Source: Minisyncoccota bacterium (GTDB lineage: Bacteria; Patescibacteriota; Minisyncoccia; Phycocordibacterales; PALSA-1337). Taken from it: a stretch of DNA of 64,000 bases. The stretch lies in NCBI GenBank assembly GCA_041665385.1, contig JBAYIX010000001.1:47865-111864 (forward strand). The letters are read 5' to 3'. The notes beneath the pieces are model-generated. The model made no database searches. It was not told the origin of the DNA and was given only the letters and a program-made list of their open reading frames with translations. The position numbers and the translations under genes were made by a program. Below are positions 14,363 to 63,450 of the stretch, one piece after another (positions within the stretch are counted from its first letter, which is position 1; every line of letters starts with the position of its first letter).

Positions 14363-14478
14363 TCGGTGTGAGGTGTGCACTACTTTGTTTTTGTTCAAAT
14401 TGAAGAGTTACCTCGAACTCTGCCCGTTGGTTTTTATCCAATTTGAACAAAAACAAAGTAGTGCACACCTCACACCGA
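14363..14478. repeat. hairpin element copy E1: 40-bp perfect inverted repeat with a 36-nt loop
   Basis: Left arm cggtgtgaggtgtgcactactttgtttttgttcaaattg is the exact reverse complement of the right arm. Loop aagagttacctcgaactctgcccgttggtttttatc. Ends 12 nt before the nusA start. Confidence 0.85.
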
Positions 14479-14489
14479 CAATAATCAAC

Positions 14490-15650
14490 ATGTTTGACTT
14501 AAAAGTAATCAATTCCGTCGTAGAACAACTCGAAGAAGAGCGCGGTATTCCCCGTGAAAAAACTCTCGAGGCTATTGCCATGTCTCTCGCTACGGCTTAC
14601 AAGAAAGAATTTGGCAAAAAAGGCCAGATAATAAGGGCTTCATTTGACGTGAACAGCGGCCAGGTAGAATTTTGGCAGGTAAAAGTCGTGGTAGACAGGG
14701 ACCAGGTCATCATGGAAGGAGACGAAGAGATGGCTCATGAGGAGATAAAGGATGCAAATGTCGACGATATCAAGATCCGTTTCAACCCGGAACAGCACAT
14801 GCTTTTCGAGGACGCTCAGAAGATAAAGAAGGATGCCGCCATCGGCGACGAGCTGGTATTCCCTCTAGAAGCAAAGGCAGACTTTGGACGCATAGCGGCA
14901 CAGACCGCAAAGCAGGTCATCATCCAAAAGATTCGCGAAGCAGAGAAAACTTCGGTTTTAGGTGAATTTGGCCAGAAGGAGGGCGAAATAGTAGCAGGGA
15001 CAGTAGAACGAGTAGAGAGAGGCGTAGTCTATATCAATATGGGCCGTGCTCTGGGCATGATCCCTTACGAAGAACAGATACCGAGTGAGCGCTGGAAAAC
15101 TGGCGACCGTATCCGTGCATACCTATATGCAGTAGAGGAGTCCCCTCGTGGCATCATGCTAAAGCTTTCCCGTGCTCATCCCAAGTTCCTGTCCAAACTC
15201 TTCGAGACCGAAACTCCGGAAATAGCGGCTGGAACTGTAGAGATCAAGGCCATCGCCCGCGAAGCGGGCTCACGCTCCAAGATCGCTGTCATATCTCACG
15301 ATCCTCATATCGACCCTATCGGTTCCATGGTCGGACAACGTGGGGTGCGTGTCTCGACGGTGACGAGCGAACTTTCTGGCGAAAAAATAGATATAGTAGA
15401 GTGGAATGAAGATCCTGCGCTGTTTATCGAGGAATCTCTCTCCCCTGCGGAAGTCGTCAGTCTGGAATTGATAGACGAAGAACATCGTGCAATTGTGACA
15501 GTGACAGAAGACGAACAATCCCTAGCTATCGGCAAGGGTGGTCAAAATGTCCGCCTCGCGGCCAAACTCACCGGCTGGAAGATAGATATAAAGTCTGCAG
15601 GAGGGAATGCGACTACAGGAGGTGATGAAGAAAAGGAGGCTACGAAATAA
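14490..15650 (+). CDS. nusA: transcription termination/antitermination factor NusA. Start at 14490; the ORF track extends upstream through the hairpin
   Basis: MFDLKVINSVVEQLEEERGIPREKTLEAIAMSLATAYKK, S1 domain and two KH domains (IGKGGQNVRLAAKLTGWKIDI). Confidence 0.9.
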   Translation: MFDLKVINSVVEQLEEERGIPREKTLEAIAMSLATAYKKEFGKKGQIIRASFDVNSGQVEFWQVKVVVDRDQVIMEGDEEMAHEEIKDANVDDIKIRFNPEQHMLFEDAQKIKKDAAIGDELVFPLEAKADFGRIAAQTAKQVIIQKIREAEKTSVLGEFGQKEGEIVAGTVERVERGVVYINMGRALGMIPYEEQIPSERWKTGDRIRAYLYAVEESPRGIMLKLSRAHPKFLSKLFETETPEIAAGTVEIKAIAREAGSRSKIAVISHDPHIDPIGSMVGQRGVRVSTVTSELSGEKIDIVEWNEDPALFIEESLSPAEVVSLELIDEEHRAIVTVTEDEQSLAIGKGGQNVRLAAKLTGWKIDIKSAGGNATTGGDEEKEATK

Positions 15651-21804: not shown

Positions 21805-21876
21805 GTAGAGAAATATTTGTGAAAAAATGCAGCTCTAACGGGCTGCTTTTTTTGTTTGCAAATTTCAATTGCAGTA

Positions 21877-21992
21877 TCGGGCAAGCGAGGGATGTGCATT
21901 CTTTTCATAGAAATTGGAGAAAAACCAACCGGCTCTGTTCGTGGTAGCTCTTCAATTTCTATGAAAAGAATGCACATCCCTCGCTTGCCCGA
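21877..21992. repeat. hairpin element copy E2: 40-bp perfect inverted repeat with a 36-nt loop
   Basis: Arms cgggcaagcgagggatgtgcattcttttcatagaaattg and its exact complement. Loop gagaaaaaccaaccggctctgttcgtggtagctctt is closely similar to the reverse complement of the E1 loop. Sits about 50 nt upstream of tig. Confidence 0.85.
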
Positions 21993-26512: not shown

Positions 26513-26540
26513 GGATCCCAGGTTTACTATCGTTAGTAGC

Positions 26541-26567
26541 AAAAAACCGCCCTAGGGCGGTTTTTTG
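26541..26567. terminator. bidirectional rho-independent terminator between hup (+) and tRNA-Gly (-)
   Basis: aaaaaaccgccc-ta-gggcggtttttt: a 6-bp GC stem flanked by an A6 run and a T6 run. Confidence 0.6.
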
Positions 26568-26580
26568 CTACATATAGCAG

Positions 26581-27956: not shown

Positions 27957-28136
27957 GGCTTTTACCTGGTAATTAGAAATGGCTTTATCTAGCCATAATA
28001 ATAAAAACTGACTCTCTATAGTACAAAATTAACGGATTAAAGCCATTTAATCTGACTTTTATAAACACTATCCACAGGGTTATCCCCAGTTATTACACTT
28101 ATCATTCCTGCTCCACCTGACATTCGCAATACAATG

Positions 28137-28207
28137 TGCGGGTATGGAGAATCGAACTCCAATCTCGTCCTTGGCAAGGACGTGTCCTACCACTAAACGA
28201 TACCCGC
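28137..28207 (-). tRNA. tRNA-Trp (anticodon CCA)
   Basis: Minus-strand sequence GCGGGTATCGTTTAGTGGTAGGACACGTCCTTGCCAAGGACGAGATTGGAGTTCGATTCTCCATACCCGCA; anticodon loop TGCCAAG. Confidence 0.85.
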
Positions 28208-28261
28208 TTGTGAAACCCCAGTATAACTGAAAGTCTTTTTTTTATCAAAAGATTTATGTGT

Positions 28262-28443
28262 TTTCGCACCGCAGGCACAGCAATGCAGTATCGGGACATT
28301 TGCAGTCCGAGCCGGATACAATGCATCTGCATATCTCTGCGAGGCGAGGACGAAACTAGCGCAAAATCCGCAACTGGCTTTCTGTAGTTGTTGCAGATTT
28401 TGAGCGTGTCCCGATACTGCATTGCTGTGCCTGCGGTGCGAAA
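28262..28443. repeat. 37-bp perfect inverted repeat enclosing a 108-nt structured loop, between tRNA-Trp and tRNA-Arg
   Basis: Left arm tttcgcaccgcaggcacagcaatgcagtatcgggaca is the exact reverse complement of the right arm (28407-28443). The loop contains further small hairpins. Shares the 15-mer caatgcagtatcggg with the left flank of hairpin element E2. Confidence 0.8.
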
Positions 28444-28467
28444 CTAGAACAAAGTGAGAGCGTAGCA

Positions 28468-28539
28468 GTGCGCCCGGTAGGACTCGAACCTACAATAACG
28501 GTTCCGAAGACCGCTGTGATATCCATTTCACCACGGGCG
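28468..28539 (-). tRNA. tRNA-Arg (anticodon TCG)
   Basis: Minus-strand sequence GCGCCCGTGGTGAAATGGATATCACAGCGGTCTTCGGAACCGTTATTGTAGGTTCGAGTCCTACCGGGCGCA; anticodon loop CTTCGGA. Confidence 0.8.
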
Positions 28540-28556
28540 CGTAAAGCTATACTATC

Positions 28557-30074
28557 ATGAAATCGAATCTATGTTATTCTAGTGCAATGGAAGGATCTCA
28601 CCAAACAACTATTCCCTTGCAGGTCATAAGCGCCATTGAAACCCTAGAAAAGGCAGGTTTCAAGGCATATCTCGTCGGTGGATCGGTCCGCGACTTGCTA
28701 CTTGGCAAAAAACCCAAAGACTGGGATATTACGACAAACGCAAAACCCGAACAAATTCAAGGTTTGTTTACAAAAACTGTCTATGAAAACGTTTACGGCA
28801 CAGTAGCTGTCATAGACGAAACTACAGAAGATATTTCACTAAAAAGTATTGAGATTACCCCATTTCGATTGGAATCCGACTATAGCGATAGACGTCATCC
28901 TGACCAAGTAAAGTTTAGTGATAAGATCGAAGATGATCTAAAAAGACGAGACTTCACAATAAATGCGATTGCGGTGTCCTTATCCAATGGCGCTATAAAG
29001 GACATAATTGACCTTTACAGTGGTTTCCAAGACATAAAAGACAAAACTATCAGAACAGTAGGAGATGCCGCATCTAGGTTCAACGAGGACGCCCTACGCA
29101 TGATGCGTGCTATACGACTGGCTGTAGAATTGGGTTTCACCATAGATAAGAACACTCTAGACGGCATAAAAATGAACAGTAATCTCTTGAAGGAAGTATC
29201 TATAGAACGTATTCGTGATGAGTTTACAAAGATAATCCTATCCGAACAGCCAAAAAGCGGTATTGAGCTGATGCAAAGCGCTGGTTTGTTGTTTCACGTG
29301 ACACCTGAGCTCGAAAAAGCCATAGGAGTAGGCCAAAACCAAGCCCATGCCTACGATGTTTGGGAACATCTACTACGTAGTCTGCAATGTGCGGCAGATA
29401 AAGACTGGAGCTTGGAAATACGTTTGGCTGCCCTTTTTCACGATATTTCAAAGCCAAAGACCAAAGGTCTTTCACGTGAAACAGGTATCATCACCTTTTA
29501 TGGCCATGAAATGGCTGGTTCACGTGAAACACGTAAAATATTAGAAAGAATGCGCTTTTCACGTGAAATCATCGAAATAGTCGTAAAACTGGTTAGATGG
29601 CACATGTTTTTCTCAGATACCGAGGTTGTTACCCTCTCTGCTGTTCGCCGTATGATCGCAAACGTCGGCAAAGACCTAATATGGGATCTAATGGACTTGC
29701 GGGTCTGTGATAGAGTCGGTACTGGTCGCCCAAAGGAAAATCCATACAGACTCCGTAAGTACAAGGCTATGGTGGAAGAAGCACTCAAGGACCCAGTATC
29801 CGTCAGTATGTTGAAAATCGATGGTAATAGAATAATGGAAATTTGCAATATTAAACCTGGACCCAAAATTGGATTTATTCTACATGCACTATTCAATGAA
29901 GTGCTCGATGATCCAAAACTAAACACGGCAGAACAACTGGAAAAACGAGCAGAAGAATTGATAGTAATTGACGATAATACGTTGAGAACTATGGGTGAAT
30001 CTGGAAAAGATCGCAAAGAGGAGGAGGAAGAAAAGAGCGTAAAGGAAATAAGGGACAAGTACCATGTCCAATAA
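28557..30074 (+). CDS. cca: CCA-adding tRNA nucleotidyltransferase with HD domain
   Basis: Pol-beta-like NTase head (GGSVRDLLLGKKPKDWDITT), RLAALFHDISKP HD motif, 505 aa. Confidence 0.85.
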   Translation: MKSNLCYSSAMEGSHQTTIPLQVISAIETLEKAGFKAYLVGGSVRDLLLGKKPKDWDITTNAKPEQIQGLFTKTVYENVYGTVAVIDETTEDISLKSIEITPFRLESDYSDRRHPDQVKFSDKIEDDLKRRDFTINAIAVSLSNGAIKDIIDLYSGFQDIKDKTIRTVGDAASRFNEDALRMMRAIRLAVELGFTIDKNTLDGIKMNSNLLKEVSIERIRDEFTKIILSEQPKSGIELMQSAGLLFHVTPELEKAIGVGQNQAHAYDVWEHLLRSLQCAADKDWSLEIRLAALFHDISKPKTKGLSRETGIITFYGHEMAGSRETRKILERMRFSREIIEIVVKLVRWHMFFSDTEVVTLSAVRRMIANVGKDLIWDLMDLRVCDRVGTGRPKENPYRLRKYKAMVEEALKDPVSVSMLKIDGNRIMEICNIKPGPKIGFILHALFNEVLDDPKLNTAEQLEKRAEELIVIDDNTLRTMGESGKDRKEEEEEKSVKEIRDKYHVQ

Positions 30075-30102: not shown

Positions 30103-30566
30103 TACACTATTTATTAAAGGACATACAATACTCTCAGATCCGTTCGTTGTCCGAGGTCTGTCATGCTCATCATAGTACGTAAACAAAATATATTTATGTG
30201 TTTTGGTGAGCATGACACAAACGAGCAAAGCTCTTTCAAAAGTTAGGGTAGGTAACTCCTTTTCATGAAGTCTGATGTGTTTGTCAGTGTTAGTTTCGCA
30301 ACCTTCTGTTGCTAGGCCACATCATAGTGTATTCTGTCACAAAATATACACAGTCTCCGAGCAGGAGAACTAATAGGAAGTGAAACAGAAAAAGCACACT
30401 ATATGCCTCAGGAACGGACCGGATAGCGATAGTGGACGTGATGGCCTTTGGCCATTCCATGTCACGGACCTGTGGGTCCTCCTTGTTCTTTAGTGCTTTT
30501 AAGTCAGACTTCAAAAGCCGCGTGAGCGCAGTCCGATCTCTAGGAAACGCATTACGCGGTTTTTTA
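30103..30566. ncRNA. candidate structured non-coding RNA in a convergent intergenic region (class unknown)
   Basis: About 460 nt without a convincing ORF between convergent cca and xth. Contains nested perfect hairpins (atggcc-ttt-ggccat, ggacc-tgtg-ggtcc, cgtga...tcacg, tgtcatgctca...tgagcatgaca) and ends with ccgcgt...acgcgg-TTTTTT. No RNase P, tmRNA or SRP consensus motifs recognised by eye. Confidence 0.3.
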
Positions 30567-57204: not shown

Positions 57205-57247
57205 GATTGATGAAGTATTGCATGGTTTTATTTTATTGGCAAGTTTT

Positions 57248-57365
57248 TGCCTCCCGAGCCGGCAGTGTGCTCCTTTTGTTCCTTTTGAAATAGTTGTGCA
57301 GGGTTCGAGTAATCATAAAAGCTCACAAAAGGAACAAAAGGAGCACACTGCCGGCTCGGGAGGCA
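57248..57365. repeat. hairpin element copy E3: 40-bp perfect inverted repeat with a 38-nt loop, in the rpmH-dnaA spacer
   Basis: Arms gcctcccgagccggcagtgtgctccttttgttccttttg and its exact complement. Loop aaatagttgtgcagggttcgagtaatcataaaagctca has the family core GGGTTCGAGTAATC. A DnaA-box-like tcatccaca follows about 60 nt downstream. Confidence 0.85.
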
Positions 57366-57465
57366 CCAACTCACAACACAAAAAATGTTCTCCACAGCTT
57401 ATCAACATATTTACAGCTCATCCACAAGTTCCCATATTTATAAACAGGTATATACTGTAAAAACG

Positions 57466-63339: not shown

Positions 63340-63450
63340 GCAAGCAATGAGCAAAACTTCCTTTTTGTCGGATTTGAGAAGTTGTGCAATGTCCGGGTAA
63401 TCATAAGAGCTCGCAAATCCGACAAAAAGGAAGTTTTGCTCATTGCTTGC
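63340..63450. repeat. hairpin element copy E4: 37-bp perfect inverted repeat with a 37-nt loop
   Basis: Arms gcaagcaatgagcaaaacttcctttttgtcggatttg and its exact complement. Loop agaagttgtgcaatgtccgggtaatcataagagctcg is about 80 percent identical to the E3 loop. Lies between the PBP1a stop and the ruvC stop. Confidence 0.85.

Follow-up and report, generated by a model that had tools for sequence, protein, structure and literature searches.

A perfect palindrome between two tRNA genes of a Paceibacteria/Parcubacteria contig as a probable member of an unannotated family of small structured RNA elements

Correia (NEMIS) repeats of Neisseria and the ERIC/IRU repeats of enterobacteria are palindromic intergenic repeats similar to miniature inverted-repeat transposable elements (MITEs), with terminal inverted repeats (TIRs) that are conserved among the copies and with target-site duplications (TSDs; TA for Correia). 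They are often co-transcribed with neighbouring genes, and their hairpins are substrates of double-strand-specific RNases. Small RNAs are also found within tRNA transcripts, as in the case of 3'ETS-leuZ of Escherichia coli and of the dicistronic tRNA-snoRNA genes of plants. The genomes of Patescibacteria (candidate phyla radiation, CPR) are tiny, and to our knowledge hardly any non-coding RNAs are on record for them apart from the universal ones. TIGR arrays occur in CPR bacteria, and their stems, which vary in sequence yet are always palindromic, surround loops that carry short conserved motifs; the units form tandem arrays beside a Tas gene with a Nop domain and carry box C/D motifs and two spacers of 8–12 nt (TIGR-Tas, PMC12045711). 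Here we analyse a stretch of 64,000 nucleotides (the window) from a Paceibacteria/Parcubacteria (CPR) contig, in which a palindrome-bounded segment of 182 bp lies between two tRNA genes. In our judgement, this segment probably belongs to a multi-copy family of small structured RNA elements in Paceibacteria/Parcubacteria that has so far not been annotated.

Coordinates are given as positions in the whole 64-kb window, and L-numbers (L074, L126 and so on) refer to loci of relatives with a combined length of ~1.07 Mb (also given as 1.1 Mb); L165 and L167 belong to the same contig as the window. A repeat search and a scan of the whole window both recovered an inverted repeat at 28262–28298 and 28407–28443, the arms of which are 37 nt long, 100% complementary and separated by 108 nt. 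The exact 37-bp repeat around a 108-nt core that an earlier note on this DNA had described is therefore confirmed, as are the hairpins it had placed within the core, which were recovered by folding (RNAfold). The 260-nt spacer between the tRNA genes folds with −120.3 kcal/mol on the (+) strand and −118 kcal/mol on the (−) strand, compared to approximately −70 kcal/mol for shuffled sequences (z = −10.5 and −10.4, respectively), and none of 200 shuffles folded as well.

With the core and the whole element as queries, nhmmer returned only self-hits in the 1.1 Mb of related loci. The exact arm pattern had no match in viral contigs or JGI metagenomes, the exact core pattern had none in viral contigs, and a search for the origin of the arms in guide-like or flank-duplication sequences matched only 12–14-mers at chance level. 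By inspection, a common junction layout was seen in long-stem elements of other species, and a hand-made descriptor of this junction gave 8 matches compared to 0–2 in shuffled sequences, with the match in L097 resembling a false positive in coding sequence. As MAFFT alignments of the members were structurally inconsistent, the family model was started from a pair of L074 copies that align without gaps, for which the structure was drawn by hand. This seed covariance model found eight further members in other species, and the resulting alignment A6 (10 sequences, without the window copy) was used to build a broadened covariance model, R2. Run on the whole window with filters off, R2 gave a single significant match at 28277–28428 on the (+) strand (29.4 bits, E ~2e-6, where E-values are rough owing to a shortened calibration), which was also returned with default filters; the next best match scored 14.1 bits. 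The reverse strand of the palindrome does not reach an E-value of 10, and generic hairpins score 14 bits or less. Aligned to R2, the window element is composed of the following parts, in which P0, P1 and P2 are the inner helices:

28262–28298 (+): 5' arm of the closing helix, 37 nt (repeat search); its inner part, GTATCGGGACA, aligns with the closing stem of the family (R2 alignment).
28299–28304 (+): junction UUU-GCA, with a 2-bp P0 helix (UU with AA at 28354–28355) followed by the 5' side of a conserved G(C/G)A/GA internal loop; among family members, P0 shows covariation between CG, UA and GC (descriptor scan, R2 alignment).
28305–28351 (+): P1 hairpin GUCC...GGAC, ~37 nt larger than the 12-nt consensus GNNC-GACG-GNNC, with a nested GA/GA loop (RNAfold, R2 alignment).
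28352–28361 (+): GA, the 3' side of the internal loop, then AA(C) closing P0 and the linker CUAGC (descriptor scan, R2 alignment).
28362–28402 (+): P2 hairpin CAAAAUCC...GAUUUUG, ~24 nt larger than the consensus CAAAAnnnCU-AGCA-AGnnnUUUU(A)UG (fold, R2 alignment).
28403–28411 (+): conserved 3' tail AGCGUGUCC, the CGUG motif of the family, running into the 3' arm (alignments A7 and R2).
28407–28443 (+): 3' arm of the closing helix, 37 nt (repeat search).
28277–28428 (+): extent of the match to R2, a model built without the window sequence.

The window copy thus possesses the junction motifs that characterise the family (UU-GCA-[GUCC..GGAC]-GA-AA, CAAAAUCC..GAUUUUG and GCGUGUCC). The GACG loop of P1 and the AGCA loop of P2 are not preserved in it, P1 and P2 carry insertions of 37 and 24 nt, and its flanks (..TTATGTGT on the left and CTAGAACAAAG on the right) lack the GCGAA/GAGC motif and the outer ACAAAAY/RTTTTGT helix found in other members.

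R2 identified approximately 22 members at E <1e-4 in the related loci; L074 has three of them within 9.4 kb, L058 has three within 6.5 kb, and L073 and L160 have two apiece. They share a layout built on a three-way junction, the first arm of which comprises P0, the internal loop and P1: a variable closing stem, YY-G(C/G)A, P1 (GNNC-GACG-GNNC), GA-RR, a GAG linker, P2 (CAAAA..CU-AGCA-AG..UUUU(A)UG), a CGUG tail and the return of the closing stem. In A6, 93.2% of the cells pair, compared to 43–50% when the partners are slid against each other, and in 30 of 32 pairs both partners have changed. An alignment of 22 members (A7) gave similar values, with 92.6% of the cells pairing, double changes in 31 of 32 pairs and a covariation score of 0.81 versus 0.19 after shuffling (0/500 shuffles as high); only the inner closing stem is poorly supported (53%). 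Both alignments were fitted to the model, which inflates these pairing statistics. Across the closing, P0, P1 and P2 helices, G-U cells outnumber A-C cells by 20 to 4 on one strand, suggesting that the strand on which GCA comes first is the RNA sense strand. This strand also folds better by 2–6 kcal/mol in L058, L064, L073 and the window. There it corresponds to the (+) strand, on which cca also lies, opposite to the tRNA genes.

Two copies in L074 illustrate what is conserved. They are identical at 65/65 core positions while their flanks are only 58% identical, and between the two closing stems a C-G pair has been replaced by T-A in a compensatory change and two further differences give G-U pairs, which indicates that the core is constrained in sequence and the stem only in its pairing. 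Across the family, the arms of different copies and species are unrelated, and conservation lies in the core. Non-complementary flanks (GCGAA before the stem and GAGC after it) and the outer ACAAAAY/RTTTTGT helix are additionally present in about half of the members, so that the unit reaches past the stem and does not have terminal repeats as its boundaries. No TSD was found at the window copy or at 19 other copies. Membership in the family, its conservation through compensatory changes, the strand bias of G-U pairs, its occurrence in multiple copies and its preference for sites 3' of tRNA-Arg(TCG) or tRNA-Gly(GCC) or for convergent gaps are established. In Rfam 15, neither the window copy nor any of seven further members had a matching family, even with E-values of up to 5–10 admitted, and besides the tRNAs only microRNA-precursor models responded, as they do to generic hairpins. 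Readings of the core as a hammerhead (CUGANGA...GAAA), K-turn, SRP, 5S, 6S or mini-ykkC RNA were tried and rejected on the grounds that the conserved positions do not fit, and searches of the literature on structured RNAs and palindromes of CPR bacteria yielded no description of this family.

The element occupies the spacer between two tRNA genes on the opposite strand:

28136–28207 (−): tRNA-Gly(GCC) (ARAGORN, Rfam).
28220–28248 (−): sigma-70-like promoter of tRNA-Gly, TTGATA-17-TATACT (promoter scan, 10/12 match).
28468–28540 (−): tRNA-Arg(TCG) (ARAGORN, Rfam), the 3' end of which lies 24 nt from the right arm of the element.

The earlier note had read these genes as tRNA-Trp and tRNA-Arg; the latter is correct, with a TCG anticodon, and the former is tRNA-Gly(GCC). 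The element is therefore placed between the 3' end of tRNA-Arg and the promoter of tRNA-Gly, its boundary being 14 nt upstream of the −35 box. Among relatives, the order tRNA-Gly(UCC), tRNA-Pro, tRNA-Gly(GCC), tRNA-Arg(UCG), cca is conserved. Comparison of this spacer across species, which the earlier note had proposed as a check, did reveal empty sites: in 50 of 85 relatives with the same arrangement the Gly(GCC)–Arg(TCG) spacer is shorter than 100 nt (median 80), compared to 260 nt in the window. Without its 182-nt element the window spacer would measure 78 nt, close to the median of the short syntenic spacers, so that, judged by these lengths, the element looks like an insertion relative to the mostly empty spacers of relatives. 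The short spacers carry the promoter of tRNA-Gly, its AGTATA box being found again in them, and the window has kept this promoter.

Genes around the element encode the CCA-adding enzyme, a UPF0102 protein, a tRNA-binding protein, RNase Y, trigger factor, NusA and DnaA. The closest relatives of the CCA-adding enzyme come from Patescibacteria metagenome-assembled genomes labelled Paceibacterota, Parcubacteria, Taylorbacteria and similar, with at most 72% amino-acid identity; cca-based scans of genome and metagenome collections found none above this value. A sequence identical to the window is contained in the ENA contig ERZ27249449:k141_1377396 (166 kb), and a JGI contig with 99.98% identity stops ~500 nt before the element.

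Further inverted repeats accompany this gene order. Directly downstream of tRNA-Gly(UCC), the window contains a perfect 36-bp palindrome, GTAGCAAAAAACCGCCCT/AGGGCGGTTTTTTGCTAC (26536–26571), which resembles a bidirectional intrinsic terminator. In six relatives, tRNA-Pro is flanked by inverted repeats of 21–35 bp (L057 2699–2798, L062 2676–2775, L063 85–199, L068 1577–1694, L073 1892–2047, L131 1148–1247) that lengthen the acceptor stem into a long leader-trailer duplex, an unusual arrangement for bacterial tRNA genes. An inverted repeat with TTCACGTGAAAC lies inside the coding region of cca (29465–29534) and recurs at the homologous place in L006, L021, L099, L109 and L110; its conservation probably reflects a repeated peptide motif and not an RNA or DNA signal.

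Most members of the family are located between convergent genes. The upstream gene is on the strand of the element in 15 of the 20 members for which it could be called, and the downstream gene is convergent in 14 of 21, with the 3' end of the gene mostly within ~30 nt of the 3' side of the element. Six members lie directly 3' of a tRNA and on its strand, four after tRNA-Arg(UCG) (L126, L058b, L160b, L162) and two after tRNA-Gly(GCC) (L164, L143). The Gly–Arg spacer itself is occupied by tRNA-sense members detected by the model in L126 (42.9 bits) and L109 (20.9 bits), and by eye by related elements closed by GGGAUUCGAA...CGAAUCCC in L148, L070, L011, L112 and L103. The window copy has the same place relative to the 3' end of tRNA-Arg as those of L126 and L109 and the opposite orientation; orientation also differs at a second orthologous site (L074a versus L055, L062 and L073b). 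A tRNA-linked non-coding RNA, which the earlier note had listed among its possibilities, is thus the identity that fits best, given a family supported by covariation, its six members directly 3' of tRNA-Arg or tRNA-Gly and the L109 copy in the same spacer.

Other hairpin elements were noticed at these and nearby sites. The window carries a 25-nt imperfect inverted repeat at 30157–30219, ~80 nt after the stop codon of cca (30074), with a P2-like apex (CAAAAUAUAUUUAUGUGU) and a non-significant R2 score (14.1 bits, E 0.24); L144, L133 and L058 have a full family member at the corresponding position after cca. A further conserved module, GGUACUG-NCCUGUAAGGN-CGA (on the other strand CCTTACAGGNNCAGTAC), stands beside or replaces the three-way-junction element in the Gly–Arg spacers of L126, L011 and L055 and in L080 (3713–3852) and L142 (2018–2157). 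Another class of long-stem elements has a G+C-rich core, CCGTCGAGGCGGCGACAA...GTCGCGCCGAGGAGGGAG, and folds better on one strand by 18 kcal/mol; one was found after cca (L001 5590–5768, the same as L085 4090–4268) and one in the Gly–Arg spacer of L002. Elements whose arms contain the nested palindrome GTCATTCCCGCGAAAGCGGGAATCC enclose A+T-rich unstructured cores (L011 5458–5654, L011 8074–8161, L015 8794–8993, L059 3385–3525) and, unlike the window element, look like conventional MITEs or REP-like repeats. Finally, L167 carries an element at 14793–14960, ~1.6 kb past the right end of the window and between ruvB and the gene of a T2SSE ATPase, with 27-nt arms (89% complementary, two G-U pairs) and a 114-nt core that differs from that of the window element; it is strongly strand-asymmetric (−80.3 versus −59.5 kcal/mol) and has no match in Rfam.

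A second family of long hairpins (E-type) is present in the window at 14363–14478, 21877–21992 (E2), 57242–57371 and 63340–63450, and on the same contig outside the window in L165 (19588–19717). Their stems of 40–51 bp are near-perfect and differ between copies except for a common GTGTGC..CTTTTG patch, and their loops of 28–38 nt are conserved (GTTCGAG/GTTCGTG with GGTAGCTC or GTAATCATAA), with an orientation that flips between copies. Four sit just upstream of nusA, tig, dnaA and fusA and one between a PBP gene and a convergent open reading frame. Rfam gave no match for them beyond generic microRNA hairpins, and the loop pattern of E3/E4 had no match in viral contigs.

Several other explanations of the window element have to be weighed, of which a MITE-like non-autonomous DNA transposon of the Correia/ERIC type is unlikely in our view. 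It would regard the arms as TIRs recognised by a transposase encoded elsewhere, the core as a passenger and the RNA-like features as a by-product. This would agree with the coexistence of insertion-like and empty spacers, with several copies per genome (those of L074 and L058), with the varying orientation at both orthologous sites, with the location of copies in "safe" convergent intergenic regions and with the perfect Watson-Crick arms. The lack of TSDs at all 20 sites speaks against it, as do arms that differ wholly between copies around a conserved core, which is the reverse of a MITE. Nor would a transposon account for the 20 to 4 excess of G-U over A-C on one strand, for compensatory changes that extend into the internal hairpins, or for the many copies with conserved non-complementary flanks and an outer helix past the closing stem. 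The exact arm is absent not only from the viral and JGI metagenome collections but also from the rest of the window and the loci of relatives, and no transposase was seen near any copy. The earlier note had pointed to an integration scar or a small non-autonomous mobile element. Without a TSD, with arms that are not conserved between copies and with no att-like repeat of a tRNA end, this proposal is not supported in the form given there. The scar, that is, an att remnant of an element targeting tRNA genes, together with a palindrome generated by chance or by replication, is the explanation that we find hardest to credit. tRNA genes are common integration targets and perfect arms are expected of template-switch palindromes, but 28000–28700 contains no direct repeat of the tRNA 3' end (the sole direct repeat is a 15-mer at chance level, matching in 13/15), the neighbouring genes (cca, UPF0102, tRNA-binding protein, RNase Y) include no integrase, and R2, trained only on other species, matches the element significantly and on one strand alone.

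Quite unlikely, too, is a hairpin that acts at the transcript end and nothing else. It would serve tRNA-Arg as a terminator or insulator and shield the promoter of tRNA-Gly, and its core would have no function. The position of the element, beginning 24 nt past the 3' end of tRNA-Arg and stopping 14 nt before the −35 box of tRNA-Gly, would suit such a role, as would its hairpin, which forms equally on both strands, and the typical placement of family members right against the 3' end of a gene. An intrinsic terminator is contradicted by the lack of a U-tract after the stem on either strand and by the absence of the element from the sites of a terminator scan; most relatives have nothing in this spacer, and a covarying three-way-junction core, as well as the identical 65-nt cores of L074, would be left without explanation. 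The proposal of the earlier note that the element is a larger relative of the E-type hairpins is very improbable. Besides the presence of five long near-perfect hairpins in one genome, it draws on E loops with GCAG..CGAG-like strings, on a CC-AACG-GG that resembles P1 in the R2 alignment of E1 and on a word in common at the edge of E2. The note had reported this word as an exact 15-mer beyond chance; the E2 side (21867–21881, AATTGCAGTATCGGG) has two mismatches to the caatgcagtatcggg of the arm, matching in only 13/15. The exact common word is the 12-mer TGCAGTATCGGG, with a blastn-short E-value of 1.3 in 1.1 Mb; chance alone should give a 37-nt arm ~0.2 such matches within 64 kb by our estimate, and the word on its own is no evidence of relatedness. 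R2 scores the E-type hairpins at 10–14 bits on both strands, the level of generic hairpins, the nhmmer searches found nothing similar to the core or the whole element, the E loop motifs are absent from the 108-nt core, and the E loops form a separate conserved family without P2 and the CGUG tail.

The interpretation as a member of an RNA family also has evidence against it. All 37 pairs of the window arms are Watson-Crick without a single G-U, and the near-perfect 37–51 bp stems of all five long window hairpins look like palindromes at the DNA level and not like old RNA helices. Closing stems in other genomes tend to be shorter, and some of them contain mismatches and G-U pairs; this contrast with the five window hairpins and the sixth just outside it points to a putative process of palindrome extension at the DNA level, or of correction from arm to arm, in this genome. 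The window copy escaped R1, the narrow first model, and was found only with the broadened R2; this and the insertions of 37 and 24 nt mark it as a divergent, expanded member, and the inflated pairing statistics and rough E-values mentioned above have to be borne in mind. The transcription, strand and processing of the element are all read from sequence. A promoter scan found no convincing (+) strand promoter upstream of the element and the flanking tRNAs are on the (−) strand, which makes expression of the sense strand of the window copy doubtful. A search of ~83 kb of this genome for an RNase III signature had no match, a sample that is uninformative for the genome as a whole.

For the family of RNA elements we nevertheless propose the following mechanism. 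Copies would be transcribed inside the trailer or read-through transcripts of the neighbouring gene, with the long closing helix delimiting and protecting the ends, acting as a roadblock at the transcript end and probably serving as a processing site for a double-strand-specific (RNase III-type) enzyme. The conserved junction and loops would bind a putative partner, and copies would turn over between intergenic sites in either orientation. If only the tRNA strand is transcribed, the window copy may act solely by its hairpin, as an insulator or terminator between the tRNA-Arg and tRNA-Gly units; it may be only such a hairpin barrier, or a decaying or inverted copy. A wider proposal, which we regard as possible rather than probable, is that the elements make up a new class of small RNAs, bounded by hairpins, found only in Patescibacteria and located in tRNA trailers and 3' untranslated regions. 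They would be released by double-strand-specific or tRNA-processing nucleases, and their three-way junction with twin G(N)A/GA loops would act on a putative partner; the long arms would let the core flip, with a fixed outside promoter expressing either the sense or the antisense core. Such flipping would explain the opposite orientations at orthologous sites (window versus L126/L109).

A multi-copy element supported by covariation across many species and absent from Rfam 15 and the literature searched would be a handle on RNA processing and regulation in uncultivated CPR bacteria, and the covariance model is ready for scanning complete genomes and metatranscriptomes. The tendency of this genome to very long near-perfect palindromes bears on how such genomes tolerate or generate palindromes.

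Among known systems, the Correia and ERIC repeats resemble the window element in being units of 100–180 bp with long inverted arms around a core, intergenic, in either orientation and present or absent between relatives. They differ in that here the arms vary in every copy and TSDs are lacking, while conservation resides in a three-way junction, which shows compensatory changes and an excess of G-U pairs on one strand. The leader-trailer stems of rRNA, which are cut by RNase III, likewise form a long duplex from sequences flanking a structured RNA, as do the 21–35 bp duplexes around tRNA-Pro in these loci, although rRNA stems would not predict a dispersed small element in multiple copies. With 3'ETS-leuZ and the tRNA-snoRNA genes, the six tRNA-sense members (L126, L058b, L160b, L162, L164, L143) share a position directly 3' of a tRNA on the same strand, and presumably a release by tRNA-processing nucleases; there is no similarity in sequence or structure, the copy in the window runs antisense to its tRNA neighbours, and for many members the preceding gene encodes a protein. 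Rfam 15 families such as hammerhead and twister-type ribozymes, mini-ykkC, 6S, SRP and Y RNA are comparable in their three-way junctions with conserved junction nucleotides, and the GACG loop is superficially like the ACGR of mini-ykkC, but as described above none of them matches the window copy or the seven further members compared. The nearest thematic parallel is found in the TIGR arrays, which share the CPR hosts, the variable palindromic stems and the conserved loop motifs. Unlike TIGR units, the copies described here are solitary, their core is conserved and not spacer-like, no array or Tas gene was seen, and on inspection the K-turn register misfits the G(C/G)A/GA loop. The family, of which we found no description in Rfam 15 or the literature searched, is thus of the kind of small structured intergenic RNA elements.

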